Assembly (NCBI GenBank): GCA_043812495.1
Contig: JBDRMG010000016.1
Coordinates: forward strand, 66,137-130,136
Reading direction: 5' to 3'
Source of the DNA: Candidatus Omnitrophota bacterium
GTDB taxonomy: Bacteria; Omnitrophota; Gorgyraeia; Zapsychrales; JBDRMG01
Length of the DNA stretch: 64,000 bases
Shown here in pieces: positions 730-59,695 of the stretch. The notes under the pieces are model-generated. The model did no database searches and was not told the DNA's origin. It saw nothing but the letters and a program-made list of their open reading frames with translations. The position numbers and the translations under genes are program-made. Numbering within the stretch: the first letter of the stretch is position 1; each line of letters starts with the position of its first letter.

Positions 730-1464
730 CTATAAATTATCTTGAGCCTCATGATACGCCTCGATACTTCCGATATCATACCACTTTCCGTCAAAAACAA
801 AACCGTATACATCCTCTTGAGTACGCAGCCATTGAATATATCCTCCGGCGGCATCGGACTTTTTTGATTCTTTTAGGTACCGCTCGATCAGGTCTAAAGA
901 CTCCTGAGGAAAATAATAAAGACACATGGCGATCAGGCTTGATTTCGGCCTTTTGGGTTTTTCCTCAAAAGAGATAACCTTTTTATCCTGATTGAGCTCA
1001 ACCACGCCGAACTTATGAGCCTCTTTAATATTTTGGATATCAAATAAACCGACTGTGACGCGAGGCACATTCATTTTTGCAAATTCAACATAGACGTCGA
1101 TGTTAAAATCAAAGATGTTGTCCCCGCCCACAACCATCAGATGATCGCGGATTTTCTTCTCTTTTAGAACATAACGAATATCTCCGATCGATCCAAGCCG
1201 ATCTTCGTTTGTCTTAGTCTGGTCATTGATAATGTCAATGCGACAAGGTAAATTTGTATGCTGCTTTGCCCAAACACAAAAATCTTGATAAAACTTATCA
1301 TTGGTGACGACGATCACCTCATCAAGCTCTGGTAAATCCGCAATCTTATCCAACAGATAATCGATGATGGGTTTATTTTTAACTTTTAAAAGAGCCTTGG
1401 CGGTATCCGTAATCAACGGATATAATCGTGTTCCGTAACCACCCGCTAAGATAAGAACCTTCAT
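730..1464 (-). CDS. Sugar-phosphate nucleotidyltransferase (NTP_transferase family, glucose-1-phosphate nucleotidyltransferase-like).
   Basis: The N-terminal MKVLILAGGYGTRLYPLT motif is typical of RmlA/GalU-type nucleotidyltransferases. Length is about 244 aa. The ORF opens with TTG at 1470; ATG at 1464 was chosen as the start. Confidence 0.7.
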   Translation of the reverse strand: MKVLILAGGYGTRLYPLITDTAKALLKVKNKPIIDYLLDKIADLPELDEVIVVTNDKFYQDFCVWAKQHTNLPCRIDIINDQTKTNEDRLGSIGDIRYVLKEKKIRDHLMVVGGDNIFDFNIDVYVEFAKMNVPRVTVGLFDIQNIKEAHKFGVVELNQDKKVISFEEKPKRPKSSLIAMCLYYFPQESLDLIERYLKESKKSDAAGGYIQWLRTQEDVYGFVFDGKWYDIGSIEAYHEAQDNL

Positions 1465-1475
1465 ACTCAATGGAC

Positions 1476-3251
1476 TTAACCAGGATCCTTCTTGTTGTCC
1501 GTCGCGTACACTTCAGGAGCTAATTCTTTTAACTTGCCTTGACAAAACTCCTCAACTTCTTTTCCTGAAGATAGTTTTAAGGCTTCCTCGGCCAATTGTT
1601 GGGCATCGGCCAAGCGAACGCTGCGAATTAATTTCTTAATTTGCAGGACATTCAGCGAAGGCATGCTCAATTCATCAATTCCTAAGCCCAGCAAAAGAAG
1701 CGCAAAAGCCGGTTCGCTTGACATTTCGCCGCAGACAGCCACTTTGATATTGTTGCGATGCCCGGCCTCAATGGCCTCTTTAATCAACCGCAAGATCGCC
1801 GGATGACCAGGTTCATACAGATACGCAGTCTGTTCATTCGTTCGATCGACCGCGAGGGCATATTGAACGAGATCGTTGGTTCCGATACTAAAGAAATTTG
1901 AGTTTTTCGCGATCAAATCAGCGGTTAGAGCGGCGGAGGGCACTTCAATCATGACCCCGACTTGTAAATTTTCCTCAAAGGGGATTTTCTCGTCTCTGAG
2001 ATTATTTTTGACCTCCTCTAAAACAAAATTCGCCTGACGTAATTCACCGGCTCCTGAAATCAACGGATACATCAATTTGACTTGACCATGAGTCGATGAC
2101 CGCAAGATGGCACGCAGTTGGGTCTTGAAAATATCCGGTCGCGCCAAACAAAAACGAATGGCCCGCCATCCGAGCGACGGATGCATATCCCGCGGAATCT
2201 GCAAAGCTGAAATAAATTTATCCCCACCCAAATCCAACGTCCTGATGGTTACAGGCAGGGGTTTCATTTCTTCGGCGACCATTTTGTAAGCCTCAAATTG
2301 CTCTTCTTCACTTGGAAGGTCGATGCGATTCATATAGAAAAATTCCGTTCGGTATAAACCAATGCCATCGGCACCCTGCTTCTTGATCAGAGTCACCTCT
2401 TCAGGCAACTCGATATTGGCCAGAATGGTTATTTTCTTTCCGTCGGTCGTTTCGGCGGGTAAATCTTTTAAGTCAACAAATCGATCGCGAAAAGTCTGAA
2501 TACGATCTTGTTCTTTTTGATAAATGTCCTTTGTCATGTCCGTCGGATTGACAATCACCAGACCCATGCGGCCATCCACGATGATAAAATCCTGGTTGCT
2601 GACTTTCATGGTCACATCCGTAAGACCAACCACCGCAGGGATCCCCAAAGATTTCGCCATAATCGCTGTATGGGAGGTCCGCCCTCCGATGTCTGTCGCA
2701 AAAGCAATAATGTTCTTATTGAACATGCTGGCTGTATCCGATGGAGAAATGTCATGCGCGATGATGATCAAGTCTTCATTGATGTTTTCTAATTCATGGA
2801 GTTTCGTTTCGCCGATTAAATTCTTTAAGACCCGGCGGCCTACATCCGTCACATCGGCAATTCTTTCTTTTAAATAGCTGTCCTGCATGCTGGCAAAAAC
2901 CTTCACGTATTTTTTTAAGACCTGGGAAAAGATGTATTCCACGGAAAGCTTATCGCTCTTGATCCGGCGGATGACCTCTTCAATCAGCGTACGGTCCTCC
3001 AGAACCAAAAGATGGGCGTCAAAAATCTGAGCATGTTTGGCATCCATTTCGCTCGCGATCTTTTTCTTGACTTCGAGGATCTCTTCCCGCGTCTTGATCA
3101 AGGCTTCTTCAAAACGTGCAATCTCCAGTGGAATTTCCTTCTCCATGATCGCTCGGGGAGGAATAATAAATTCCTGCTTATCGAGAATGAAGGCCGAGCC
3201 GCTCGCGATGCCGGGTGCGGCAGGTACGCCTTTTAAAACTGTTTCTCCCAT
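1476..3251 (-). CDS. ptsI: Phosphoenolpyruvate-protein phosphotransferase (PTS enzyme I).
   Basis: The 591-aa product carries GGRTSHTAIMAKSLGIPAVVG (PEP-utilising enzyme mobile domain) and the C-terminal TIM-barrel motifs NDLVQYALAVDR and GEMSSEP. Confidence 0.9.
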   Translation of the reverse strand: MGETVLKGVPAAPGIASGSAFILDKQEFIIPPRAIMEKEIPLEIARFEEALIKTREEILEVKKKIASEMDAKHAQIFDAHLLVLEDRTLIEEVIRRIKSDKLSVEYIFSQVLKKYVKVFASMQDSYLKERIADVTDVGRRVLKNLIGETKLHELENINEDLIIIAHDISPSDTASMFNKNIIAFATDIGGRTSHTAIMAKSLGIPAVVGLTDVTMKVSNQDFIIVDGRMGLVIVNPTDMTKDIYQKEQDRIQTFRDRFVDLKDLPAETTDGKKITILANIELPEEVTLIKKQGADGIGLYRTEFFYMNRIDLPSEEEQFEAYKMVAEEMKPLPVTIRTLDLGGDKFISALQIPRDMHPSLGWRAIRFCLARPDIFKTQLRAILRSSTHGQVKLMYPLISGAGELRQANFVLEEVKNNLRDEKIPFEENLQVGVMIEVPSAALTADLIAKNSNFFSIGTNDLVQYALAVDRTNEQTAYLYEPGHPAILRLIKEAIEAGHRNNIKVAVCGEMSSEPAFALLLLGLGIDELSMPSLNVLQIKKLIRSVRLADAQQLAEEALKLSSGKEVEEFCQGKLKELAPEVYATDNKKDPG

Positions 3252-10648: not shown

Positions 10649-11581
10649 ATGGCTAAGGTAAAGATTGCCGTTATCGGTATCGGCCACTTAGGCTCAAGGC
10701 ACCTTAAGGTCTACAGCGAGCTTAAGCATAAAGTGCAAATTGTCGGAATTTACGATATTAAGCAAGACCGGGCTAAAAAATTTGCCGAGCATTACGGTGT
10801 CCAATTATACGCCAACCATAAGGACCTTTGCGCAAAGGTCGATGCCGTCAGTATTTGCGTACCGACGATTAATCATTTCTCCGTGGCCAAGGATTTTCTT
10901 GAAAGCGGCCATCATGTCCTGGTCGAAAAACCCATCACCCATACCGTTCAAGAAGCCGCTCAACTTATTGATCTTGCCGAACAAAAGAAATGCAAGCTTC
11001 AGGTCGGCCATATCGAACGTTTTAATTCGGCTTTTCAGGGCATTGTCAAATTTACAAAAAATCCTCTTTTTATCGAATGTCATCGCCTGAACCGTTTTCC
11101 CAATCGCTCATTGGATATCGGTGTCATTATGGATCTTATGATCCACGATATTGATATCATCTTGGGTCTTGTGCGCTCTGAGGTCAAAGAAATTCGGGCC
11201 GTCGGCGTTCCTGTTTTGACGCCTTTAGAGGATATCGCCAATTGCCGCTTAACCTTTGCCAACGGCTGCGTCTGTAATCTCACGGCCAGCCGCATCTCGG
11301 ATGATGTTACGCGTAAAATCCGCATCTTTCTTAAAGACACCTATATTTCATTGGATTATGTCGAGCAGCAGGCCTATATTTACCGAAAGTACGGCCGGCT
11401 TATTTCTAAACATGCCCTTCCGATCGAAAAAGAAGAACCTCTCAAAAAAGAGCTCGAATCTTTCATCGATTGTATTTTGAAAAATAAACGTCCTCTCATT
11501 TCCGGACTCGAGGGTAAAGAAGCCCTGGAGCTGGCCCTCAAAATTACCAAAGCCGTATGGAAAAATCCACTACCCATTTAA
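10649..11581 (+). CDS. Gfo/Idh/MocA-family NAD(P)-dependent oxidoreductase.
   Basis: The N-terminus reads MAKVKIAVIGIGHLGSRH (Rossmann fold), followed by ...EKP... The stop overlaps the lpxB start in a TAATG arrangement. Confidence 0.75.
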   Translation: MAKVKIAVIGIGHLGSRHLKVYSELKHKVQIVGIYDIKQDRAKKFAEHYGVQLYANHKDLCAKVDAVSICVPTINHFSVAKDFLESGHHVLVEKPITHTVQEAAQLIDLAEQKKCKLQVGHIERFNSAFQGIVKFTKNPLFIECHRLNRFPNRSLDIGVIMDLMIHDIDIILGLVRSEVKEIRAVGVPVLTPLEDIANCRLTFANGCVCNLTASRISDDVTRKIRIFLKDTYISLDYVEQQAYIYRKYGRLISKHALPIEKEEPLKKELESFIDCILKNKRPLISGLEGKEALELALKITKAVWKNPLPI

Positions 11582-12708: not shown

Positions 12709-15700
12709 TTATTTCAAATAGACATCAATACGGTCGGCCTTATTGTCGCGTATATCATTGGCAAAAGGCGAGGGGATAAAACCGGAAGATATTGTGACGG
12801 GGTCGCGGTGATCGGCGTACGCAATAACAATACGCTCAATCGACGCTTTGTTGTCGCCGAACGTATCCCGACGCTTGGGATTATGATAAACCACCAAGGT
12901 CGAGCCGAGAAAATTAAAAGCATAGGTATTTTTGGGAAGGACGATTTCCCGCTGAAGGCGATTTTTATCAAAATAAATTGTCTTTGTTTCTTGTTTTGTG
13001 AATAGCCACTTGGGCAATACCGGTTTAAACGCTAGTTCAAGATTTCCTTTCGGATCCAAGAAAAATGGAGCATCTCCCACATTCATCAAAAGCCAAATAT
13101 GCAGCCATTCGGCGGTGGTTCCGCTCAATCGTGCTACAAATCCACGGCCATGAAGACTTGCGTCTTCGTGGGCGCTGCTGACGATAAAGGAGGAACTCTC
13201 CAAAATACTGCGGCCGTATTTCTTCGGATCCATAAAAGGCACAAGAGTATATTTAAAATTCTTATAAAACTCGTCATACAATCCGAATTTGAGCAATTCA
13301 AGAAGGAATTTGTTCTCCATATGCATCCAGATCGATTGGTTCTCAAGCCAGCCCGCCGGAAAAACACTGGCCCGCCCGATCTCGGCTGATTCGCGGGATA
13401 AATCGTCATTGACGCGGTACATCTTGAGTTTTTTATCAAACAGAGGGCTGTGGCGGACGTTTTGATAAAGAGTGCGCGCCTTGATCTGGTCGTTCTGCAC
13501 TCTCAGGGCATGGACAAATCCTTCCAAGAAAAGAGGCAAAGCTTTTTTCTGGAAATTCAACGGGACAATATATGCGAGGCCGTCGGGATTAACCTTGTCC
13601 AATGTTTCATAATCTGTGATTTCATGGATAAAATAGGTCACGCACAAGCCATGCTTATTTTGGGCCAAGGCAATGGCTTTATCCGTTTTTTGGATCACCA
13701 GCTGCAAGAACCGGTCAATGACCGAAACAGGCATGGACCGTTCGACCCCGTCAATGCCTTGTTCCGTGCGGCGTCGATAATGTTCCTTGATTTCGTTGGA
13801 GTGACGCCAATAGACCAGCGGATCTTTTTGCGTAGTCAACAAATCATTGAGCCCGGAAATAAAACTCAAAAGTTCGTCATACATCCGCACTTCGGTGTGT
13901 CCATCCAGTTTCATGTCTTTGAATGAATGGCGGATGAACTGACAAAGCCTTTTCAGCTCAAATGTCTCGGAAATGGATGACCCCATCAGGCCCGGTAAAC
14001 CGTTGAGGGCGTCATACCAATTGGGCTTGTCCGCTTCCATTTCGATACCGACTCCGCTGGGATCAAGGGTGGCGGCTTTATTCGCCACAAGACACAAGAG
14101 CTTAACGAGGAGGCACGTAAAATAAACCGGGCCCTGCCCGCCATTGGTCCTGAGCTTATGGTCAAAAGCCTCCGTTACGACTTCATGACCTTTATCCACG
14201 ACAGAATGATATTGCCGGGGACCGTGATTCGTCAAAACATACCTTTGGTCCCGGGGCAGCACATGATGGGTATTGTGATAAAAGCTGAAGGCTTTTTTGT
14301 TAAGAAGCAGATTTCGTCTTTCTTCCGGATAAAGAGCGAGAAAGCGCTCGATCAAATCGAGATTATAAGTCCAGTGATCGGTCCAAAATCCTTCGCCGTG
14401 TTCAGCCAGTTCATGTTTATGGCAATAGCTCAAGAGTTCCTTCAAGAACTTCTGAGGTGACGTTTTGAGTTTTATATCATAATCATCGATTGACTTCAAA
14501 AGCGCCCCAGGGCAAAAACCTACTTTCAGAAGTTCTTTGACAAAATTTTTTCCTCGGCCAAGGATAAATTGATTAACGATGGCCTCGATCCTTGCCGGAC
14601 TGTCCAAAGAGAAAACATTCCCCTTGATGACTAATGGATTATACCCGTCGGCTTGAATCAGGCTCAGGAAATTCACGATATGGTTGTCTTTGACATCACG
14701 GTTAAACCACACGTCGTTGCGTCTGTTTTGGTTGACATCACGGTAATTTCCGTTGCCTTGAGAAAGATAGGTGGGATTCAGAATAAAATTATTGTAGTCG
14801 CGCTCAAGATCTCCGTGCTTACGGCTGTAGACATTAAAAACAATTTTTCCCTCTTGGGTCTCAAGCGCAAGAGGCAAGCCTCCGCGCATAACGTTATCCA
14901 AAAAGGTCTGTTGGCAATATTGATTGAAGGCCGCTGAGGAGCTTGACGTAAAGCAGTTATTTTTGATCTCTTGGATAAGGCGTTGATTTTCTTTGGCTTT
15001 ATGATCAATAAAATTTTTATTTCTTGCGCGCGCCAGTATTTTCTGAACCATAGCCACGGAATGCGTATGGCCAAACAGCGAAGTGATTCTTTCTTTCTTT
15101 TTTCCAGGCAAAGCAAAAGAGGCAAATGTCATGGCGCACAAAGAACGATTGCTGCTTTTTTGTTTCAAGGGAACTTTGAAAAGATTCCGGCCCATAAAAG
15201 CTTCGGGCACAAGAAAGTCGGTTGAATTGCCAAACACACTCAGAGGATCAATGATCGGATTCAACGGTTTTGGTTTCCGGCCTTCGTGCAAAAGACTAAA
15301 ATAAAAATGGCCTTCGCTGATGGATTTGACCTGCGGCCGGTCCGAAATAACCACTTTGAGATTATAATAGGGGGCTTTGTTTTCGAGATTCAAAACCTGT
15401 TTCCATGCTTCAACGGTGTGCGAAATATCTTTTTGCAGGCGGTCGATTAAACCGAACGGAATAATCTCCGGCATCCCGTCAATGACCTCAAGCGTTACTC
15501 TTTTTGTTCCAACATTTTCGATGGTGACATCCCGCACCAAAGCGGCATAGGGCTCTTCAGGTAAGGTAAAATAATTGACACGAACCACCAGCCCCAAGGT
15601 CACATTGGTCTCTTCAATCGTTAAATCATGGGAGGTGATCATCATCCGCTGCTTACGCTTAAATGCCCCGTTGGAAAGATTGTTCTGAAATGGTTCGTAA

Positions 15701-15996
15701 AGAATGGGTTTTCGCCCCTTTTTGATTTTAATGAATGTCCGGAAACCCTGTAAAGACGTTAACCGGTAAGCCTTGTTGGCCGGTTGGAATTCCATAATCG
15801 CCTTGTCTTTTCCTTCAACGCCGAAGCTAGCGATGCACTGGCCGCGGTTGACCGTGAACACCCACATGGGGATGCCCCAAAGACCGGCGATGCCCGGGAA
15901 GAAATTGCTGAAGGGCTCGGCATCATTATAATTCTCAATGATAAACCGGCCTTGCTCATCAAGATAATAGGATACGTTTTTTGCTTTATTCTTCAT
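12709..15996 (-). CDS. Large (1095 aa) GH94-like glycoside phosphorylase / six-hairpin glycosidase family protein (COG3459-like).
   Basis: The motifs GNGNYRDVNQNRR and FWTDHWTYNLD resemble the GFRDSNQD and DWND catalytic motifs of cellobiose/chitobiose phosphorylases. The assignment is tentative. Confidence 0.4.
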   Translation of the reverse strand: MKNKAKNVSYYLDEQGRFIIENYNDAEPFSNFFPGIAGLWGIPMWVFTVNRGQCIASFGVEGKDKAIMEFQPANKAYRLTSLQGFRTFIKIKKGRKPILYEPFQNNLSNGAFKRKQRMMITSHDLTIEETNVTLGLVVRVNYFTLPEEPYAALVRDVTIENVGTKRVTLEVIDGMPEIIPFGLIDRLQKDISHTVEAWKQVLNLENKAPYYNLKVVISDRPQVKSISEGHFYFSLLHEGRKPKPLNPIIDPLSVFGNSTDFLVPEAFMGRNLFKVPLKQKSSNRSLCAMTFASFALPGKKKERITSLFGHTHSVAMVQKILARARNKNFIDHKAKENQRLIQEIKNNCFTSSSSAAFNQYCQQTFLDNVMRGGLPLALETQEGKIVFNVYSRKHGDLERDYNNFILNPTYLSQGNGNYRDVNQNRRNDVWFNRDVKDNHIVNFLSLIQADGYNPLVIKGNVFSLDSPARIEAIVNQFILGRGKNFVKELLKVGFCPGALLKSIDDYDIKLKTSPQKFLKELLSYCHKHELAEHGEGFWTDHWTYNLDLIERFLALYPEERRNLLLNKKAFSFYHNTHHVLPRDQRYVLTNHGPRQYHSVVDKGHEVVTEAFDHKLRTNGGQGPVYFTCLLVKLLCLVANKAATLDPSGVGIEMEADKPNWYDALNGLPGLMGSSISETFELKRLCQFIRHSFKDMKLDGHTEVRMYDELLSFISGLNDLLTTQKDPLVYWRHSNEIKEHYRRRTEQGIDGVERSMPVSVIDRFLQLVIQKTDKAIALAQNKHGLCVTYFIHEITDYETLDKVNPDGLAYIVPLNFQKKALPLFLEGFVHALRVQNDQIKARTLYQNVRHSPLFDKKLKMYRVNDDLSRESAEIGRASVFPAGWLENQSIWMHMENKFLLELLKFGLYDEFYKNFKYTLVPFMDPKKYGRSILESSSFIVSSAHEDASLHGRGFVARLSGTTAEWLHIWLLMNVGDAPFFLDPKGNLELAFKPVLPKWLFTKQETKTIYFDKNRLQREIVLPKNTYAFNFLGSTLVVYHNPKRRDTFGDNKASIERIVIAYADHRDPVTISSGFIPSPFANDIRDNKADRIDVYLK

Positions 15997-19122: not shown

Positions 19123-20148
19123 TTATTCGACGAGTTGAATGTCGATTTTGACTTTACCCTGAACAGCCCTGACAGACGGTGAGTAAAAAGGCTTGGCATC
19201 TTTAATCATATAGCCTTGATTCCCGTTTAATAGGGCAATGCGGTCGCGTTCTTCTTGCGCGGCGATATGGGCCAAATGGGCCTCGCGCCGAAGATCTCTG
19301 ATTCTCAAGCGGATATGCCGATTCTTATTTTTATTGACGGAAATGGCGTATTGACCTTCATCTAAGCTCCTGATATCGCCGTTTAATATTCTCATTTCTT
19401 CCGCAAGGACAGCTATCTGTCTGCCGAGTTCATCATTTTTCCTTCTCATGTCGCTAATTTTTTCGTTTAAACCCTGAACCACGGAAGCGTTCTGCGCTTG
19501 AGCCTTCGCGAGCATATCCTCCGTCTGAACCAATAAAGCTTTGGCGGCATTCAAATCTTTGGACATATACATAATCGCGTCTTCTTGAATACGATTCTGA
19601 TCAAGGGCACTCGCATAAAGACTCGCTTGACCTCGCGCGTTGGCCAACATCAGATGATTGGATCTTTCGATTTCTCGATGAATAATCGCCTGCTGAATAA
19701 AGTAAACAGCCAAGAGCGCAACCATAATCGCAAAAAGAACAACGCCGATTCTCGTTTTGATGCGCTCGGCACCCTCAATCCGCGCTATTCTGTTTTGAAT
19801 CTTCTCTTTCAGGCGAAGGGCGATATCCTGAGCCGGATTCACAAATTCGATTCCGCACAGACTTCGGGATCCCAAGCGTTGCGGCCGCGCCCAAACCATT
19901 CGCCCAACAGGCGGCAAGAAGTCGACGGGTCCCTGTTTTGGCATTTCAAAAGCAAGAATGCTGTTTTGCGCAAAAGACACCTTGACATCGGTCTCAAGCA
20001 TCATGCCTGTTTCGCTTAAGTTTCTCACGCGCGCCGTCCCATCAATAGCCTGATCCTTAAAATGCCACGTCACGGGAAAACGCTCATTGATCCGGAAGCT
20101 TCTTCGAGCCTCCACGCGATACATCGGTGATTTGCTTAATAATCCCAT
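19123..20148 (-). CDS. PilZ-domain c-di-GMP-binding protein with a central transmembrane helix and a coiled-coil region.
   Basis: RRSFR...NLSETG are the PilZ RxxxR and D/NxSxxG motifs. A hydrophobic segment (IGVVLFAIMVALLAVYFI) follows, then a heptad-rich segment. Start was set at the ATG at 20148, which has a GGGGG Shine-Dalgarno. Confidence 0.65.
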   Translation of the reverse strand: MGLLSKSPMYRVEARRSFRINERFPVTWHFKDQAIDGTARVRNLSETGMMLETDVKVSFAQNSILAFEMPKQGPVDFLPPVGRMVWARPQRLGSRSLCGIEFVNPAQDIALRLKEKIQNRIARIEGAERIKTRIGVVLFAIMVALLAVYFIQQAIIHREIERSNHLMLANARGQASLYASALDQNRIQEDAIMYMSKDLNAAKALLVQTEDMLAKAQAQNASVVQGLNEKISDMRRKNDELGRQIAVLAEEMRILNGDIRSLDEGQYAISVNKNKNRHIRLRIRDLRREAHLAHIAAQEERDRIALLNGNQGYMIKDAKPFYSPSVRAVQGKVKIDIQLVE

Positions 20149-20156
20149 TTTATTTA

Positions 20157-20306
20157 CCCCCTTCAATGACGACACAGCTTATGGAGTCCGCCATTGTTTC
20201 TGTGTCTGTGGCGGACGACATAAGTTGTTTGTCGGAATTGAATCCTTGACAATTTTTGAAATATGGGTGGATATCGCAAGCAACCGAATATCAAAAATTG
20301 TCAAGG
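20157..20306. repeat. C-type hairpin repeat (20157-20235) followed by a perfect 16-bp inverted repeat, CCTTGACAATTTTTGA ... TCAAAAATTGTCAAGG (20244-20306, 31-bp spacer).
   Basis: Read directly from the sequence. The repeat lies in the PilZ gene 5' region and contains TTGACA on both strands. Confidence 0.6.
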
Positions 20307-23580: not shown

Positions 23581-23905
23581 GACGATAAAGGCAAACCCGT
23601 TGTGAAACGGGGGCCCCGGCTTCGCCAAATATTTAACATGTTTGGCTTCGCCGGGCCCGGCATAGCTGAATGCGAAAGCAATTCAGCGAAGCCGGGGCAA
23701 AGCCAAGGGTCCTAATCAAATTTAAACAGGACAGCCTGGCTACCGAATCAAGAACGTTTTGACGATAAACCCTATATAAGGGTCCGGCGTAGCTAAACGC
23801 GAAAGCTTTTTAGCGAAGCCGGAGGCTAACTCGCTGTAAAGCGAGGGCGCAAAGTCAAGGGTCCTATGATGAGGGACGGCCTGGCTGCCGAATCAAAACA
23901 AACGG
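23581..23905 (+). ncRNA. Candidate structured RNA or cis-regulatory leader. Two tandem ~180/145-nt units each begin with GACGATAAA and contain a conserved hairpin, CCGGC-RTAGCT..GCGAAAGC..AGC-GAAGCCGG.
   Basis: The direct repeat runs 23581-23760 and 23761-23905. The inner stem differs between the two copies by compensatory changes (GCTGAAT/ATTCAGC versus GCTAAA/TTTAGC). A plus-strand intrinsic terminator follows. Confidence 0.35.
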
Positions 23906-23953: not shown

Positions 23954-23993
23954 TTGGGCAGCCCCAAGAAACACAAAAAGGAGGTTGGTTAAA

Positions 23994-24920
23994 ATGAGAA
24001 AACACGCAGTCATAACTTTTTTATTTATCGCTTTATTTGTGATGGGAACAACAGTCGCAGCTTTGGCAGGAACAGGCGGCTATACAAAGAATTCGAGCAG
24101 CGGTGGTGCCAGTGGTAATGCCGACATTGTTCCTACTGGTGTTTGTGGTGACGCGGATAACAATGGCGGAATAGACATCGATGACATGATCCTTGTCTAC
24201 GCGTATATTTTTGCCGGTGGCGAAGCGCCTTCATTCTATCTTCAAGCTGACGCGACGGGCGATGATGCGGTAGACATTGATGACTTTCTAAGATTACAAA
24301 ATTACATATTTGGTCAAGGGGAAGCGCCTGCATGTCACAAGTATGTCAGCTGCCTCGATTACAACGGAAATGGAAGAGTCAATACAAAAGACTTGGAAGT
24401 CCTGATAGCCTATATTTTTCAGGGCGGCGATCTGCCGGCTGGCGGCGATGCCACCGGAGACGGCGTGATTGACGTCGATGACTATGCGCAGGTCTTGATC
24501 CCTTACCTTTCCGGCACAAAACTTTTACCACCTTTGTGCGGAAGCAGGGCATTTTACCCTTGCTTGGATGCTACCAATGACGGTCAATCAAGAGAAGATG
24601 ATGTGGAAGCGATCATCAATGCAATTTTCAATGGTCAACCGCTTCCACCAAAAGAGCGCGCAGATTGTACCGGTGATGGCATTGTAGATATTGATGATGT
24701 GAGCTTTGCTATTGACTTTCACTACAATAATGGTCCAGAGCCAGTATGCTCATCGACAGGATTCCTAACACCATCTTCTGTTGAATCCTATTGCGGTGAT
24801 GGCATTTGTAATGGTGCCGAAACATGCGCAACTTGCTCAATGGACTGCGGCACATGTCCTGCTCCAGAGCCAACACCATCTGCCTCGCCTTCTACAACAA
24901 CCAGTACTATGCTTAGATAA
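23994..24920 (+). CDS. Secreted protein with six dockerin-type-I-like calcium-binding repeats and a Cys-rich Pro/Thr/Ser C-terminus.
   Basis: A signal peptide (MRKHAVITFLFIALFVMGTTVAALA) is followed by DADNNGGIDIDD, DATGDDAVDIDD, DYNGNGRVNTKD, DATGDGVIDVDD, DATNDGQSREDD and DCTGDGIVDIDD loops, each followed by an aliphatic helix. An AGGAGG Shine-Dalgarno lies upstream. Confidence 0.7.
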   Translation: MRKHAVITFLFIALFVMGTTVAALAGTGGYTKNSSSGGASGNADIVPTGVCGDADNNGGIDIDDMILVYAYIFAGGEAPSFYLQADATGDDAVDIDDFLRLQNYIFGQGEAPACHKYVSCLDYNGNGRVNTKDLEVLIAYIFQGGDLPAGGDATGDGVIDVDDYAQVLIPYLSGTKLLPPLCGSRAFYPCLDATNDGQSREDDVEAIINAIFNGQPLPPKERADCTGDGIVDIDDVSFAIDFHYNNGPEPVCSSTGFLTPSSVESYCGDGICNGAETCATCSMDCGTCPAPEPTPSASPSTTTSTMLR

Positions 24921-24947: not shown

Positions 24948-24990
24948 GGGCCCCCGCCATTGAATCAATGGCGGGGGCCCTTTCCTTTTA
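24948..24990 (+). terminator. Intrinsic terminator hairpin (GGGCCCCCGCCATTGAATCAATGGCGGGGGCCC followed by a T-rich run); this is an A-module variant.
   Basis: A perfect palindrome lies 28 nt after the stop and is followed by TTTCCTTTT. Confidence 0.65.
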
Positions 24991-32615: not shown

Positions 32616-35486
32616 TCAGTGGACACTAAGCATCTTGCAATACTTATTAAAATTTACATCCGTATTCTTCAATAATGCCCAACCTGTTATGCTCACGCCT
32701 GGCAAATCGGCAGGAGGCAAGCTGCCGGTCAAATAGTCCGATTCCCATTTAAATTCCGATGGAATAGAGCCAATATCGAAAGGGAACTTCCCTACCGCCC
32801 CTCCACCGCACCAGTCATTGACTTCATTGCAATATTCTGAACATCCTCGGCAGGATTTCCAATAGAAATCTAAAAAATAGTAAGTATCATAATGTTGATA
32901 AAATCCCTGCGTATCGGGGCCATTCAAACATTCCTCTTGCGTGCAACTTCGGTTATAGTCACTCAAGAGCCATCCATAATCATAAAATTCCATAGGGTCA
33001 GTCGGATCGCTGGGATCATCCTGAAAGAGAGAATTCGGTAATTTAAATAATGTGCCGGTAAATGTCTTGCCATAATGTTTATAATCTTCATTTTTGTCTT
33101 CCCAATCATTCTTCCAGTTCCAAAGCTCAAGAGTGGTGTTATAAAAAAAGTTTCCTAAATCAGCCGCGTTATCTCCAATAATAGAAATCCTGTATACTTC
33201 ATCCTGCATAACCCTATTGGGCATAGGATCAGCCGTTCCTTCTTTGTGGGCGTTTCGCCATGCCGAATGGACCGGTTCTTCTTCATTTTCCTCAGTATCT
33301 GGGTCGTCTATGTAAAAAATATCCGGGTGATTTCCGAGCTCCGGTATTTCTTTGGGAAAATCAAAATCGCGCGAAAGAGGAAAAAATTTTTCCCTCGCTA
33401 TAACAGAGGCGGGGACATAATTCTCCGTATTTATGCTCCCTATGGCATAGGCGTTTCCCTCTGTAACAACAGTTAATCCGCCATCCATTAATTCTTGCGC
33501 ATGAGAAAGACCTACATCCCAATCCGAGTAAGCCACATTCTCTTTGGGTGCCGGTATTACTCCTTGGCCAATGGCTTTATTTAAATTCTCAATATCAACA
33601 AGAACAAGCGAATGCCACAGCGAACTCATTGTATTATAGAAACCTTCCTTTTTAAAAATGACCACGTCTGCAGGTGAACCGTCAACATCAATGGTGACCT
33701 TGATTTCTCCGTATTCATCCGGCACACGTTCAAAAATTTCTGTCTCACCGGTAATTTTCACCTTATAATTTCCAACGGTCCCTCCCGTACTATCTAAAAG
33801 ATTTTCTTTCAGATAATAAAGTTTTTGAAAATGGCGTCCTTCAAAATTTCCGGAACTGTTAAAGCTAGCGCGATCTACCGTGTTTTCAATAAGAATTCCT
33901 TCGTCTTTAGCCATGTTTCTGAGTCTTTTGGCGCTCACGATAGGGCTTGCGATGCTTGTCGCGCCTGTAGAGCTATCGAGTAAAACGCCTTGGAGAACAC
34001 CGCCTTCAGTGGTCTCTAGAAACTCGGCCCAATCATCGGCTTGATATTCTGTATTTAAGAATTTGACTTCTGGGCAAAAACGTTCATCGGTGCATGTTGT
34101 TTGAATATCATCCGGATTATAATCATTGGGCGGGAAAAAAGAGTAAGCTTTAGTGTAATTATCCGTGTAGGTCTTGCGTCCCATGATACCGTCTTGTGCG
34201 TATCTTGGCCACCGCCATTCTGTGTCCAATCGATTCGGTATTTTGACTGTTGTCGGAGTATCTGGATCATACGGTGTTATGAGAGCAGGATCATAAAGAT
34301 TACTTCCCGTCGGCGTATTATACATATACTTTTCGGGATAGAGGATGGGATCAAGGGGGCGCCACGTATAACCATCTTCCACCACCCCAATTTTATCCCG
34401 ACAGCCAGCGAATGTGCCGGTCGTTCCTTTTTCGCACAATAGACCACCTCGATCTCCGGATAAATAGCCATTATATTCATTGATCCATTTATTAGGATCA
34501 TAATATTTTAGACGAGGATCTGAGGCGTTGACATCAAACATGCAATCATCCGGGTCTAGCCAAGAAGCCGAACAAGCACCGGTTCTCCAATTTGTTGTTC
34601 CGTCAGAACGATCAATGCCATATAATTCAGCCCAGGTTTTATAGCTGACGTGTGGTTCTCGCGTAAAGTAATTATCCGCGACTGTTTTGTTATTCTCATC
34701 CACGCACATACCTGTCCAGCCATCGCGCGCGCAGGAGATAGATCCTGCCGCCGCAGGAACTGCATCAAGATCAACCATCGGAGTGAAATAAAAATTATCC
34801 ATTTTTTGCTTAAAATATTTTGCCGTGCTCAATTGTGAGATATTTTTAATTTGAGTACCTCCAACAAACGTTATATTCTCATTCGAATGAATCCTTCCTC
34901 CTGCAGCATCATAGACTGTTACGCCATCAAAATTTATGCCAGCTTCCGGATAGAACATAAAATAATCATAGAGAGAACCCGTTGAGACCCTTGCCGCTAA
35001 AAGTCTTTCTTTGTTTCCGCTTATTCCTTTGATTAAAACAATCTTGTTTTTGGTATCAACGCAATCGTATGTTGCGCAAGGGATCGCGTCGTTATAGATT
35101 TTCGCCACGAATTGTATTGGTTGGTCTTCTTGAGACGCGTAGCCCTCCTCTGTTAACTCATTGAGGTCTTCCAGCACGATAACCGGAGCTTGGGCGCCGG
35201 TAACTTCAGAATAATGGATGAGTTGCTCTGTATTAATATCAACAAAGTGTGTAACCCAGTTATCGGAATCGGGAGAGGAATTTTTCAATTCCTCAATGAC
35301 ATACTCCAGGCCGCGTTCAGCCGCATAAAGAGCCTTCATGGAATTATCATCGTGGCCAACCGATATTTTCTCGCCAATGGATTTTAAAAATTGCGCTCCG
35401 GATAAACCAAGAAAAATGACTGTCGCCGCAATTACGGTGAGAATAAGCCCTTGGCCTTTCTGATTTCTTAATGTGTTAAGTGTCAT
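32616..35486 (-). CDS. Large secreted PilX-like / putative pilus tip-associated protein (956 aa).
   Basis: The N-terminus (NQKGQGLILTVIAATVIFLGLSGAQF) resembles the PilX N-terminal pseudopilin-like helix. The rest is Asp/Gly/Tyr/Trp-rich with no known catalytic motif. A GGAG Shine-Dalgarno precedes the ATG at 35486. Confidence 0.45.
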   Translation of the reverse strand: MTLNTLRNQKGQGLILTVIAATVIFLGLSGAQFLKSIGEKISVGHDDNSMKALYAAERGLEYVIEELKNSSPDSDNWVTHFVDINTEQLIHYSEVTGAQAPVIVLEDLNELTEEGYASQEDQPIQFVAKIYNDAIPCATYDCVDTKNKIVLIKGISGNKERLLAARVSTGSLYDYFMFYPEAGINFDGVTVYDAAGGRIHSNENITFVGGTQIKNISQLSTAKYFKQKMDNFYFTPMVDLDAVPAAAGSISCARDGWTGMCVDENNKTVADNYFTREPHVSYKTWAELYGIDRSDGTTNWRTGACSASWLDPDDCMFDVNASDPRLKYYDPNKWINEYNGYLSGDRGGLLCEKGTTGTFAGCRDKIGVVEDGYTWRPLDPILYPEKYMYNTPTGSNLYDPALITPYDPDTPTTVKIPNRLDTEWRWPRYAQDGIMGRKTYTDNYTKAYSFFPPNDYNPDDIQTTCTDERFCPEVKFLNTEYQADDWAEFLETTEGGVLQGVLLDSSTGATSIASPIVSAKRLRNMAKDEGILIENTVDRASFNSSGNFEGRHFQKLYYLKENLLDSTGGTVGNYKVKITGETEIFERVPDEYGEIKVTIDVDGSPADVVIFKKEGFYNTMSSLWHSLVLVDIENLNKAIGQGVIPAPKENVAYSDWDVGLSHAQELMDGGLTVVTEGNAYAIGSINTENYVPASVIAREKFFPLSRDFDFPKEIPELGNHPDIFYIDDPDTEENEEEPVHSAWRNAHKEGTADPMPNRVMQDEVYRISIIGDNAADLGNFFYNTTLELWNWKNDWEDKNEDYKHYGKTFTGTLFKLPNSLFQDDPSDPTDPMEFYDYGWLLSDYNRSCTQEECLNGPDTQGFYQHYDTYYFLDFYWKSCRGCSEYCNEVNDWCGGGAVGKFPFDIGSIPSEFKWESDYLTGSLPPADLPGVSITGWALLKNTDVNFNKYCKMLSVH

Positions 35487-35522
35487 GCTCTTCTCCAAAT
35501 CTTGTTTTAGGTAATATCATAC

Positions 35523-35737
35523 GTGTCCAAATTAGCGCAATCTAAGCTTCTCAATTCTATTGATAATTAAGGGGTTACGACAATTTTCAGCTTTTTGAGA
35601 TATGAAATCGCAATTTGGACAGCATGAGCATATTTTGAACAATAAGATTGCCATATGGATTCACATCCGACGGTAATTCTAGGCTCAAATTACGACGGCT
35701 GAACGTATTTACCTGTGTCCAAGCTAATTTGGACAGC
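35523..35737. promoter_or_regulatory. Cluster of TGTCCAA/TTGGACA palindromic sites in the 5' region of the PilX-like gene. The sites are GTGTCCAAATTAGCGCAAT (35523-35541), ATCGCAATTTGGACAGC (35606-35622, inverted) and GTGTCCAAGCTAATTTGGACAGC (35715-35737).
   Basis: Read directly. Sites 2 and 3 also share a 22-nt direct repeat, AATTTGGACAGCxTGAG. A 13-bp perfect inverted repeat, AATTAACCTATCC..GGATAGGTTAATT, is at 35784-35821. Confidence 0.35.
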
Positions 35738-36130
35738 TATGAGGTAATATAAAATATTGTACACTACTTTTCTTAATTAATAAATAATTAACCTATCCCT
35801 TTTTGAAGGATAGGTTAATTGGAAGTGTATCAAAATCCCAGCCGAGATCACATGCCTCACGACTGGCTTTTGGTTGGCAACTGGTTACCCTATCCTAGAA
35901 GGGTCCTTTTAGCTTTGCCGCTCCGCAAGACTACGGAACAACCTTTATCAACCAAAAAAAGTATAGCACTTATTCTAACTTATTCAATAAGCGTAAGTTA
36001 AAAAAGATGCTTTTTAAGAAAACGTTTTCTTATTCACAATCAATGAATGCTAACTCTTAGCATAGCAATAGATTGTAATTTATAGCAAAATAGACAAATT
36101 TCCGGAAAGATTTAATTCTTAATTTATGAC

Positions 36131-36284
36131 TCATTTCAATGAGACCATGACTTATGGAGCAAAGCGCCCGCCTTTTTATTAATATTTTAGCGAGGTCTCG
36201 TCAATTCGATTTTATCGAATTGACGGAACATAAGTCATAAGGTCGAATTGACCCAGCCCGCCATTGATTCAGTGGCGGGCTGGG
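36131..36284. repeat. Intergenic repeat: a C-type hairpin (36131-36247; stem GACCATGACTTATGG / CATAAGTCATAAGGTC) plus an A-type hairpin (36252-36284; CCCAGCCCGCCATTGATTCAGTGGCGGGCTGGG).
   Basis: Read directly. An internal TTGACGAGACCTCGC segment is shared with the copy at 57446-57550. Confidence 0.55.
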
Positions 36285-36332
36285 ATAAAACAAATACAAA
36301 TATAATATTTCATCTATAATTCTGGCGGGAAA

Positions 36333-37226
36333 TTAATTGCTTAAATTGCGAAGGCGCACAACTGAGGAAAGGCTAAAAAGAGTTTGATTGCCGAAAAGAT
36401 TGGGCCTGGATAATTCCAAAAACACTTGGACGGTCTCAGGAGGCGTCGTGGCGCTGCCCCCTGTCCCCGGGCCAGGAGTTCCAAGAAAATAAATGGCGCT
36501 GATATCCGTAGCGATAACACGGACCGAATACCTCGAAGGATTGGCCAAAAAAGGAAAGGGATTATACTGGGAGATATCAGGAGCTGTTTGCGCAAAGGCG
36601 AGGCCGGGACGAAAGAGCTCTTCCAGCCAATTATTAAAAAATGCGCAATCGCCGCCCGGCGGAGGAGCCGGGCAATTAGCTGGAGTTTCTCTGGGAGGTT
36701 CGCAAATACCATCTCCGCACACAATTTGATTTCTTGTCAACCGAATTAATCGATTGGCATTGCTTCCAAATGGACCCAGGGTATGGGGAACCATATAAAT
36801 AATTCTTTCATCATCATACATGACTTCGCGTCCGTCATAGCCCCATTTGATAGGATACGCTGATCCTACTAAAGGCTTAAATATGCTTCCCTGGATATCG
36901 CAAGCAGTCGTCCCGCAGCTTGTCGCGACCGGAACGCGGAACTCCACCGCTCCGCCGACACAATACTGGTCAGGACACTTGTAGATTTTAACTTGCGCCG
37001 ATGCTGACTGGGCAAGCTCAGCAGTGACGCGCTCCATGGCCAGTCGCGCATGCTGCTGCAAATCGATTTGGGTGGAGCTGCGAAAATAGGTATTGCGGAT
37101 GACGACAATCGTTCCAATCAGGCCGATACCGATAAAAATAGATATGGCCAAGACCGTCATGATCTCGACAAGCGTAAATCCCCGTCGATTGAATTTTATA
37201 AATCCTTTATTGAAAAATAAACGCAT
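36333..37226 (-). CDS. Type IV pilin-like / pseudopilin protein (prepilin-type N-terminal cleavage/methylation domain).
   Basis: NRRGFTLVEIMTVLAISIFIGIGL is a class III signal peptide with the G|FTLVE motif. The C-terminal part is Cys-rich. Confidence 0.65.
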   Translation of the reverse strand: MRLFFNKGFIKFNRRGFTLVEIMTVLAISIFIGIGLIGTIVVIRNTYFRSSTQIDLQQHARLAMERVTAELAQSASAQVKIYKCPDQYCVGGAVEFRVPVATSCGTTACDIQGSIFKPLVGSAYPIKWGYDGREVMYDDERIIYMVPHTLGPFGSNANRLIRLTRNQIVCGDGICEPPRETPANCPAPPPGGDCAFFNNWLEELFRPGLAFAQTAPDISQYNPFPFLANPSRYSVRVIATDISAIYFLGTPGPGTGGSATTPPETVQVFLELSRPNLFGNQTLFSLSSVVRLRNLSN

Positions 37227-37488
37227 CGTTCGGTTCTTTTTTAAAAGAATCCTTTCTGCTTATAAGTATACCACGCTGCGATTAAAGATAAATGACGGAT
37301 TTAAGAATTTAAGAATTTAGCGACATTTCAGAAAATGAGAAATTTTTTTGGCATAAAATTATTTTATCCGCCTTCGCCTGAATACTACGGCTGTTAGGCC
37401 GTAAACAAAAGACGGCGGATAATCCTGCGAAGCTCGAACACGAAATTATTGGAGCGAAGCAGGATTGGCTTCGGCGGATTTCGCCGAA

Positions 37489-47838: not shown

Positions 47839-49617
47839 TTAGTCAAAACAGCAAATCCTATTTTTGCCTTCTCGCTTGGCCTGGTAAAGCGACTGGTCTG
47901 CCTTCATGACAAAATCATGCCGATCCATTTGGCCGGCGTAGCGGGCCGCACCGATACTGATAGTAATTTTTCGTCTTAAGTTAAGACCCTCAATAGATTT
48001 CTTTACTTTTTCTGCAACTAGTTTTGCTTGCGGAATATCTGTTTCAGGTAAAATAGCCGCAAACTCATCACCCGCATAACGGCAAAGGATATCAACATTA
48101 CGCATACTTCGCTTCATCATCTGACTTGCGCGAGAAAGCAGAATATCACCTTCCGGATGGCCATACTGATCGTTATACTCTTTAAAACCATCGATATCGA
48201 TCATCAACAGACACAAAGGCCTCGGGTAACGTCTTGAGCGCTCAATCTCCTGCTGAAGCGTCTTAATAAACTGACGATGATTAAAAAGACTTGTCAGGGA
48301 ATCCGTTGTTGAGAGGAATTCCAATTCGCGATAATAATAGGCATTTTCAATCGCAATGGCGGCCTGACGGACAATGCTGCAGAGTATTTTTAAATCCACT
48401 TCTGTAAAAATAGGATCCTCTTTGCTGTCCTTATCCGACACATTGACAACACCCACAAGCTTCGCATGCAGTTTAATGGGAACGCACAAGAACGATTTGC
48501 CCTTATAACTGGATCGATTCTTCCGCGCGATCAGCAGTTCTGATTCAATATCATTGACTAATAGGGGCTCTCCTTTCTGGGCCACAATGCCAGCAATAGG
48601 ATCCCCGACTTTTATTCTTGTTTCTTTGATGATCTTTTTTTTCAAACCCTTTGCGCCCTTAATCAAAAGCTCCTGGGAATCATCATCGACAAGCATCAAA
48701 GAACACTTTTGCGCTTCCAATATTTGAGTTGCCTTTTCAATGACAAAGTCTACCAGCTGATTAAGTTCAAGAATCGAGCTGATCTTCTGGTCAATGTTTA
48801 AAACTTGTTCCATTTTCTTTCTTTCAAATTCTAAATCTTCCTGCAACACCTTGAGTCTACTTTCTATTTCTTTTCGTTCTGTAATATCCTGAAATATTTC
48901 AAGAACGGCATTTTTGCCCTCATAAAGCATGCCGGTGTGTGTAACGAGAAATGTCCGTCCTCCCAGGACGTCCTCCGTTTCAATGGACGCCACTTCGCCG
49001 ATTTTGATATTTTTTCTAAGCGGGCACAAGAGGCATTGGGCTTTATCGTCTTTGTAAAGATCCCAGCATCTTTTTCCAATGGCCTTTTTTCCGTAAATCT
49101 TCTTTAATTTCTCACACAAGAAAAGAATTTTACCCTCTTGGTCAACAATTTCCATGCCGAAAGGAATCGTATTGATCAGGGTCTGGTTAAACTCGCTAAT
49201 GCGCCGAATGGCTTCTTCGGCTTGTTTTTGTTGGGTGATGTCGCGGATAACTCCTTCTGTTCCGATGATGCGGCCGGTTATATTTTTAACAAGATTACTG
49301 GTGACGGAGAGAATGATTTCGCGGCCATCTTTTCTTTTGTTGACAACTTCATAATCTTTAACAAATCCTTTCTTCATAATTTCCCCTAAGAATAACTCGC
49401 GGTCATTGGGATTGCTATAGAGTTCTTGAGCAAGATTCAAGCCAAGAACCTCTTTCTTGCTTTTATAACCCATAATTTCCACGTAGGCCTGATTGATAAA
49501 AATAAGATTGCCCAAGACATCGGCCATATAAACGCCGCTTTTTAAGGATTCAAGAAGGTTCTGAAAGGGTCTTTCTGCTTCTCTTTGAATTTTCTGAGGT
49601 TTTCTGGATTCGATCAT
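47839..49617 (-). CDS. PAS-PAS-GAF-GGDEF diguanylate cyclase with an AGDEF active-site variant and an RxxD I-site.
   Basis: RNVDILCRYAGDEFAAIL is the GGDEF-domain core. Upstream GAF and two PAS-like segments. Confidence 0.8.
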   Translation of the reverse strand: MIESRKPQKIQREAERPFQNLLESLKSGVYMADVLGNLIFINQAYVEIMGYKSKKEVLGLNLAQELYSNPNDRELFLGEIMKKGFVKDYEVVNKRKDGREIILSVTSNLVKNITGRIIGTEGVIRDITQQKQAEEAIRRISEFNQTLINTIPFGMEIVDQEGKILFLCEKLKKIYGKKAIGKRCWDLYKDDKAQCLLCPLRKNIKIGEVASIETEDVLGGRTFLVTHTGMLYEGKNAVLEIFQDITERKEIESRLKVLQEDLEFERKKMEQVLNIDQKISSILELNQLVDFVIEKATQILEAQKCSLMLVDDDSQELLIKGAKGLKKKIIKETRIKVGDPIAGIVAQKGEPLLVNDIESELLIARKNRSSYKGKSFLCVPIKLHAKLVGVVNVSDKDSKEDPIFTEVDLKILCSIVRQAAIAIENAYYYRELEFLSTTDSLTSLFNHRQFIKTLQQEIERSRRYPRPLCLLMIDIDGFKEYNDQYGHPEGDILLSRASQMMKRSMRNVDILCRYAGDEFAAILPETDIPQAKLVAEKVKKSIEGLNLRRKITISIGAARYAGQMDRHDFVMKADQSLYQAKREGKNRICCFD

Positions 49618-59640: not shown

Positions 59641-59695
59641 CTTTCAATGAGCCCGCCATTGATTCAGTGGCGGGCGAATTGACCCCGCACCTTTT
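59641..59695. repeat. Truncated A plus B repeat copy: the A hairpin (59652-59674) and the B left arm GACCCCGCACCTTTT (59681-59695), with no right arm.
   Basis: Near-identical to 563-620, including the CTCATTGAAAGGAG tail that supplies the Shine-Dalgarno for the LolA-like gene. Confidence 0.55.

Follow-up and report, generated by a model that had tools for sequence, protein, structure and literature searches.

In a 64-kb stretch of contig JBDRMG010000016.1 from a Candidatus Omnitrophota bacterium (hereafter the window, whose coordinates are used throughout), a prepilin-type gene and a gene for a 956-aa protein with features of a large minor pilin are separated by a gap of 846 bp (35487-36332), which holds a structured RNA of about 90 nt. 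This gap is probably the leader of the 956-aa gene and would act as an OFF switch, derived from the GEMM-I riboswitches, that senses cyclic di-GMP (c-di-GMP) and controls a ComZ/PilX-like minor pilin of the filament tip; both the ligand and the polarity are what we infer from the evidence given below. Structurally, the element is a new variant within a riboswitch class already known, and it comes from a phylum that has been little studied. The gap as a whole is a mosaic, in which a hairpin repeat, a promoter, the RNA, a terminator and an insertion resembling a miniature inverted-repeat transposable element (MITE) can be told apart.

Both genes of the module lie on the minus strand. Transcription runs from the prepilin gene (36333-37226) through the gap to the 956-aa gene (32616-35486), so that the prepilin gene precedes the large gene; a preliminary description of this locus had placed it downstream. 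The 956-aa open reading frame (ORF) and the long noncoding region given there were both recovered. No ORF of more than 60 aa is present in the gap on either strand, and the one of 60 aa is antisense to the aptamer. A gene overlooked in the gap, which the preliminary description had allowed for, is ruled out by this absence of longer ORFs and by the RNA-like character of the conservation there. In agreement with that description, no PilB/C/M-Q, GspE/F or prepilin peptidase was found among the window proteins scanned, which comprised most of the larger ORFs. The gene pair recurs in six other loci (L003, L005, L019, L007, L033 and L035), one of which, L003, is syntenic with the window across ~20 kb. 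The prepilin and the large protein with an N-terminal helix are a genuine, conserved and detached module, as had been proposed for a minor pilin or adhesin.

The RNA was seen in a permissive Rfam scan (1.2-kb search), in which RF01051 (gathering cut-off 35 bits; clan CL00126) matched positions 35873-35953 on the correct strand with 22.7 bits and an E value of 0.075; at gathering thresholds, Rfam returned nothing in the gap. This match, the fold and an alignment of four homologues define a variant GEMM-I (c-di-GMP-I-like) aptamer at 35868-35958 on the minus strand. It folds as a closed three-helix junction, with a folding z-score of -4.9 for aptamer plus terminator and of -5.0 for the whole leader. 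Helix P1 is formed by UUUUGGUUG/CAACCAAAA, P2 is a continuous 11-bp hairpin, the junction reads GCAAAGC, P3 carries an AA bulge and the 3' tail is UGCC. Three other permissive matches in the gap were rejected: the NsiR4 match is confined to the repeated GC hairpin and lies on the opposite strand, while RAGATH-22 and rliA gave poor alignments far below their cut-offs.

The aptamer is embedded in the signals expected of a transcribed leader, all on the minus strand. A sigma-70-type promoter with an extended -10 element (TGc), TTGAAT-16-TGcTATACT, occupies 35960-35987 and ends ~2-7 nt upstream of P1. Downstream, a window-specific linker hairpin predicted from the fold (35838-35866) precedes a terminator-like hairpin at 35776-35820, with a 15-bp stem (35820-35786), a CAAAA loop and then AUUUAUUAAUU. 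The perfect 13-bp inverted repeat noted in the preliminary description exists at 35786-35798 / 35808-35820; it is not a separate element, being the terminator of this riboswitch-like RNA. The ribosome-binding site GGAGAAGAG (35488-35496) lies 1 nt before the ATG at 35486, with its GGAG core (35493-35496) 6 nt before it, and has a counterpart, GGAGAACAAGATG, in L003. The earlier suggestion that the gap is under complex control or carries a small RNA gene holds as far as a structured regulatory RNA is concerned, although this RNA is a cis-acting leader derived from GEMM-I and not a free-standing small RNA gene; the riboswitch itself had escaped the preliminary description.

Homologous RNAs were found directly upstream of the orthologous large gene in L003/L018 and L005/L021/L025, and upstream of the prepilin gene in L019, where the large gene follows directly. 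The variant is known from the window and three other metagenomic lineages, in four distinct sequences that share the form GGUUGA-AAAGGUUG-hairpin-GCAAA(A/G)CU-P3-AACCAGUUGCCA(A/G)C. At all four loci, a TATACT -10 box precedes the conserved GUUG of the P1 5' strand by 7-13 nt, and an intrinsic terminator lies downstream of every copy, those of L003 and L005 being canonical with U tracts of at least 6. The alignment of the four sequences contains 42 invariant columns. Across it, 94.3% of the cells of the P1/P2/P3a structure are paired, compared with 20-53% in control registers slid by 1-3 columns, and 7 of the 22 pairs have changed on both sides. The three-helix junction is thus supported by covariation, and it is also the minimum free energy (MFE) structure of three of the four aptamers. 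RNAalifold mis-drew P3 on the MAFFT alignment, and P3a and one pair of P3b were therefore set by hand; the inner P3 helix, whose register is not maintained in the alignment, was not scored.

A covariance model built from this alignment (R1) matched at high score these variant copies alone (78-101 bits, with 93 bits for the window aptamer). Scanned singly against the GEMM-I clan, the copies all remained below threshold, with 22.7 bits for the window, 22.3 bits for L005 (on the GGC model) and 17.6 bits for L019; the copy in L003, which was not scanned alone, gave no report at E<=5 within a 32-kb search. Pattern scans for the variant in genome and metagenome contig collections returned only contigs already known (L014, equivalent to L003, and L021, L022 and L025, equivalent to L005), so that the variant RNA is rare. 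The remaining pattern matches were chance hits inside GC-rich coding DNA, as judged by eye and by the absence of an R1 match, and the scan of viral contigs gave a single chance match (L037). No riboswitch was found in L001 (P0002), which has only 224 nt of upstream sequence, or in L002 (P0004). In L003, a 63-aa ORF had been called exactly on the variant riboswitch (11263-11454), which is probably a false gene call.

More distant loci carry RNAs of canonical GEMM-I type upstream of the orthologous operon, which consists there of a prepilin gene with a Hint domain followed by one or two genes for homologues of 740-814 aa. They score 43.5 bits in L033 (1113-1242), above the cut-off of 35, 42.7 bits on the GGC model in L035 and 30.9 bits in L007, and all three have retained the C-containing AAA/G(A/G)C internal loop, as well as the AG bulge. 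With the orthologous position held by bona fide members of the class, the sequence comparison indicates that the variant RNA descends from a c-di-GMP-I (GEMM-I) riboswitch. Positions G20, A47 and C92 in the numbering of the Vc2 riboswitch are ligand contacts (PMC5888326). Their equivalents are kept in the variant: the cmscan alignment matches model positions 11 (G), 38 (A) and 83 (C), none of which varies among the four sequences, and the mapping to Vc2 numbering is our own count. What the variant does not have is A25-G42, C44, G83 and the A33-A62 tetraloop/receptor contact (Vc2 numbering). Base pairs replace the P1b internal loop, which results in a continuous P2 of 10-11 bp with conserved G.U pairs; the bulge reads AA where the canonical one reads AG, with the loss of G83; and the loops (GUCU, a 10-nt loop, UGUAA and AAAU) include no GNRA or GYRA. 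Two types have been described in the literature, type I with a GNRA tetraloop and receptor and type II with GYRA and no receptor (PMC11218506), and the variant fits neither.

The arrangement of aptamer and terminator bears on the polarity of the switch. The two are able to coexist in the MFE structure, an arrangement expected of an OFF switch. Complementarity exists between the terminator's 5' arm and the loop plus 3' strand of P3 (35885-35896 in the window), which yields a predicted antiterminator duplex of -13.1 kcal/mol (p = 0.005 against shuffled arms). This pairing with P3 falls at the same place in the window, in L005 (-14.3 kcal/mol, p 0.001) and in L003 (-9.6 kcal/mol, p 0.22), despite their differing sequences, while in L019 and L007 the terminator arm pairs best with the 3' strand of P2 (p 0.13 and 0.05, respectively). 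According to the mechanism that we propose, the bound ligand, most likely c-di-GMP, would hold P1 and P3 in the aptamer; with the aptamer locked, the terminator would form and transcription would stop before the large gene. When the ligand is absent, the 3' strand of P3 would pair with the 5' arm of the terminator, and this antiterminator would allow RNA polymerase to read through. The product under control would be the large PilX/GspK/ComZ-like minor pilin, probably located at the tip of a type IV filament, and the upstream prepilin gene would encode its conserved partner. The class I switches of Clostridioides difficile are uniformly OFF (PMC6366702).

Several observations weigh against this interpretation. 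The aptamer scores below the Rfam gathering value (22.7 versus 35 bits), and the GNRA tetraloop, the P1b internal loop with C44, and G83 are all missing. The OFF polarity depends on a predicted alternative pairing, which is not individually significant in L003 and L019. Only four distinct variant sequences are available, so the covariation statistics are thin, and related sequences that have no structure are known to exceed the shuffle control as well. In the window, the U tract of the terminator is interrupted and its stem is rich in AU, an insertion of 233 nt lies between terminator and ribosome-binding site, and the insert might contain its own promoter (TTGTCG-18-TAGAAT, 35583-35554). The assignment of the large protein to the pilins is based on a weak structural similarity and on the character of its N-terminal sequence.

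Three other readings of the gap have to be weighed against a c-di-GMP-sensing leader, two of which concern the RNA itself. Vc2 makes two long-range contacts, the tetraloop/receptor and C44-G83, and its G83C mutant shows no detectable c-di-GMP binding by isothermal titration calorimetry (PMC11705072), so that binding of c-di-GMP by the variant is not assured. An RNA that senses another ligand, or that senses c-di-GMP through a new tertiary arrangement with a very different affinity, and which would then form a distinct class derived from GEMM-I, is consistent with that mutant, with the loss of both contacts in all four variant sequences and with their retention in canonical copies of the same genome (23814-23892) and of orthologous loci. 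The changes are moreover conserved with covariation, hence not simple decay. However, the equivalents of G20, A47 and C92 are unchanged, whereas the specificity switches known in the GEMM-I clan (G20A for cyclic GMP-AMP (cGAMP), and the GGC and UAU variants) alter those very positions, and the gene context is the same as that of the canonical copies; we regard such a change of ligand or affinity as unlikely. The RNA could also be a decaying GEMM-I relic without present function, the large gene being expressed by read-through or from a promoter inside the insertion. The sub-threshold Rfam score, the weak U tract and the 233-bp insertion downstream with its promoter-like site would fit such a relic, but against it stand the 42 invariant columns together with compensatory pair changes in four lineages that differ in their flanks, the promoter and terminator conserved at each copy, and an antiterminator complementarity that co-varies with the terminator sequence. 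We therefore give it little credence. A GEMM-I derivative that has lost both long-range contacts, has kept its pocket and is under purifying, covarying selection may, though less likely than not, represent a minimal c-di-GMP-I architecture with a new mode of helix docking, or else a riboswitch of changed specificity, dedicated to a pilus-tip protein.

The third reading concerns the TGTCCAA-type repeats, which the preliminary description took for operator palindromes. The repeats are real: TGTCCAAATT occurs three times in the window, always in the gap (0.35 occurrences expected in 64 kb; none of 100 shuffles reached three), and the heptamer four times in the gap. All four heptamers lie within a 224-bp MITE-like element on the minus strand (35518-35741, or 35509-35750 with its flanking repeats), two of them in its ends and two internally (35716-35722 and 35615-35621). 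The 9-bp direct repeat ATATTACCT, which has its sole two occurrences in 64 kb at 35742-35750 and 35509-35517, abuts both of the 19-bp inverted ends (CATAGCTGTCCAAATTAGC / GCTAATTTGGACACGTATG, 17/19 complementary), and these enclose 186 bp. L003 and L005 have no insertion at the corresponding position; in both, the start codon follows within ~10-45 nt of the terminator. Operators of a dimeric transcription factor controlling the large gene, of the form TGTCCAA-N6-TTGGACA, would accord with the 7-6-7 palindrome at 35716-35735 and a second inverted pair 78 nt apart, with the enrichment of the 10-mer and with the position of the sites between riboswitch and ribosome-binding site. Nevertheless, the outermost copies are embedded in the inverted ends flanked by the perfect direct repeat, the whole block is absent from L003 and L005, and the motif precedes no other gene within 64 kb. 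Operators are accordingly improbable, and the block is better explained as the transposition footprint of a MITE-like element with a 9-bp target duplication. No second copy was found in the window, in the 37 fetched loci or, by its end motif, in viral contigs.

The 956-aa protein is identical to the NCBI protein ABIJ41_02835, from a metagenome-assembled genome of Candidatus Omnitrophota. Its N-terminus (KGQGLILTVIAATVIFLGL, KGQGLILTV) is without Glu+5, as are those of PilX_N and GspK proteins, and presumably resembles that of PilX/GspK-type minor pilins. A PilX-like N-terminus had been described previously; the protein itself has no Pfam or NCBIfam match, including to PilX_N (PF14341) and T2SSK. 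Among 1.84 billion representative proteins, it has 85 homologues, five of them close and full-length; no NCBIfam match was found in the family, and one of 45 homologues matches PilX_N (E 2.5e-4). The gene of a more distant homologue, P0004, has one N_methyl gene and several small ORFs without annotation among its cluster neighbours.

An AlphaFold model built on a 73-sequence alignment (predicted local distance difference test, pLDDT, 79.7; predicted template modelling score, pTM, 0.83) contains a 65-residue N-terminal helix (residues 4-68), a beta-sheet (80-170), a solenoid-like run of short strands (175-228) and then large beta-rich domains; the N-terminal 240 residues modelled alone reached a pLDDT of 87.4. 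Foldseek searches of the PDB returned ComZ (6QVI) as the top match, and the only pilin near the top, both for the full-length model (E 2.9e-3, probability 0.35, TM score 0.13) and for the N-terminal 240 residues (E 3.7e-3, probability 0.96, TM score 0.27), albeit weakly in each case. A profile search of PDB sequences reached geopilin N-termini at E ~0.1 only. ComZ of Thermus thermophilus is a pilin into which a beta-solenoid is inserted, and it has been argued to occupy the pilus tip together with PilA2 (PMC6561018). On this weak similarity, the 956-aa protein is a plausible candidate for a pilus-tip minor pilin or adhesin.

The prepilin gene (36333-37226, minus strand) encodes a minor-pilin-like protein of 297 aa with the class III signal RRG|FTLVE, as previously reported; both N_methyl (PF07963; 21.6 bits, cut-off 21.2) and TIGR02532 (19.1, cut-off 16.3) match above their cut-offs. 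The gene has its own promoter, TGgTATACT, at ~37264-37272. Four relatives were found (P0005-P0008), and the gene is syntenic in L003 and L005. Its orthologues in L019 (4649-5974), L007 (208-1389), L033 (1304-2509) and L035 (3792-4928) contain a Hint/intein-like module (PT-HINT, Intein_splicing) of ~150-170 aa. In the two that were aligned, L019 and L007, the module is inserted where the window protein has CGDGICE...GGDC, and at this site the L003 prepilin has an expanded, Cys-rich array of CGNGxC repeats. It is unusual for a type IV pilin-like protein to contain an intein-like domain.

Further repeats occupy the part of the gap next to the prepilin gene. Immediately after its stop codon lies a GC-rich hairpin of the repetitive extragenic palindromic (REP) kind, CCCAGCCCGCCA..TGGCGGGCTGGG (36252-36284, unstranded). 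This hairpin (AGCCCGCCATTGATTCAGTGGCGGGC) occurs four times in 64 kb at gene ends, with a 26-nt core that is identical at 578-603, 36255-36280 and 59650-59675 and similar at 24953-24975, and a TTGACCC motif adjoins the copies. The copy after the prepilin gene is likely to be a terminator; the repeat as such might terminate transcription in both directions or be a mobile palindromic unit. Next to it, a compound palindrome (36135-36251, unstranded) contains GTCAATTCGA three times, bracketed by TTATGACTTATG / CATAAGTCAT, with a perfect 12-3-12 palindrome at 36199-36225. The region of both repeats (35990-36335) has a folding z-score of -6.6. Relatives do not have the compound palindrome, and no clear target duplication accompanies it; another small mobile element or a binding site for a protein would be possible explanations. 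The unusual length of the gap is due to the MITE-like element, the REP-like hairpin and this palindromic block. Two smaller features of the preliminary description were not reproduced: instead of a 22-nt direct repeat, the best one found measures 12 nt when exact and ~17 nt with one indel, and the A+C repeat element amounts to a trivial ACAAAT x2 beside a hairpin.

Elsewhere in the window, tandem canonical c-di-GMP-I riboswitches (23667-23892, plus strand; 35.8 and 54 bits) are followed by a terminator and precede a gene for a secreted protein with dockerin/EF-hand domains (23985-24920). The first of these aptamers seems to begin at ~23581, with a large P1b insertion, and the tandem arrangement is syntenic in L003 (19127-19345, minus strand). 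The window also contains genes for a PAS-GAF-GGDEF diguanylate cyclase (47839-49617) and a PilZ-domain protein (19123-20175), both on the minus strand; since GGDEF and PilZ genes are present, the 64 kb with its three GEMM-type RNAs also encodes c-di-GMP synthesis and a protein receptor. In L019, two canonical GEMM-I-like aptamers in tandem, each with a terminator (1400-1700, minus strand), lie before an 89-aa ORF (1104-1373), which adjoins the gene for a 1053-aa T2SS-T3SS_pil_N/SdrD_B protein; R1 gives the first of these aptamers 28 bits. A 1095-aa ORF of the window (12709-15996, minus strand) has no Pfam match at E<=0.001.

Canonical and stripped-down GEMM-I RNAs at orthologous positions, with both kinds in the same genome, constitute a natural experiment. 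The variant lacks elements that studies of Vc2 describe as needed for docking, and its ligand and affinity would tell whether such peripheral contacts can be spared, adjust sensitivity or alter specificity. In the Omnitrophota, a phylum that is little known and for the most part uncultured, the locus would link c-di-GMP signalling to a conserved two-gene module of a prepilin and a giant protein resembling tip pilins. There are also consequences for annotation, as Rfam thresholds miss the variant, a probably false ORF was called on the L003 copy and operator-like palindromes are better read as the footprint of a transposon.

Compared with known systems, the insertion shares with bacterial MITEs its size of 224 bp, its 19-bp terminal inverted repeats and 9-bp target-site duplication, its intergenic position without a credible ORF and the long hairpin that it would form when transcribed. 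Bacterial MITEs are non-autonomous derivatives of insertion sequences. Unlike them, this element is visible in one copy within 64 kb and has extra internal copies of the end motif. The model of the 956-aa protein is like ComZ in its long hydrophobic N-terminal helix, beta-sheet and solenoid-like run of short strands; by the argument made for ComZ (PMC6561018), the protein would be too bulky except at the filament tip; and its gene adjoins that of a small partner pilin. It differs from ComZ in length (956 versus ~550 aa), with 16-18% identity, a TM score of 0.27 and an E value of ~3e-3, and its C-terminal 700 residues have no recognised relatives beyond ~85 metagenomic proteins.

The terminator-type OFF logic that we propose for the variant is that of the C. 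difficile class I switches (PMC6366702). With GEMM-I (RF01051; Vc2 and C. difficile Cd1), the variant has in common the three-helix junction, an A-rich 5' junction ending in G (G20), the GCAAA(G/A)C junction (A47) and a P3 base of A(A/G)CU/AGUU followed by GCC (C92). It likewise lies in a 5' leader with an intrinsic terminator and is tied to genes of surface or motility type, and the canonical form sits at orthologous loci. By contrast, its P2 is continuous, without the AAA/GAC internal loop or the tetraloop receptor, its bulge is AA and its scores are 17-23 bits against a cut-off of 35. Also close are the rare, lineage-restricted derivatives of GEMM-I, namely the cGAMP-sensing GEMM-Ib and c-di-GMP-I-GGC and -UAU (RF03167, RF03168), and the L005 copy scores best on the GGC model (22.3 bits). 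What defines those variants are changes at the positions that contact the ligand (20, 47 and 92), whereas in the present RNA this triad is the canonical G/A/C and the changes lie in the peripheral elements that make tertiary contacts.

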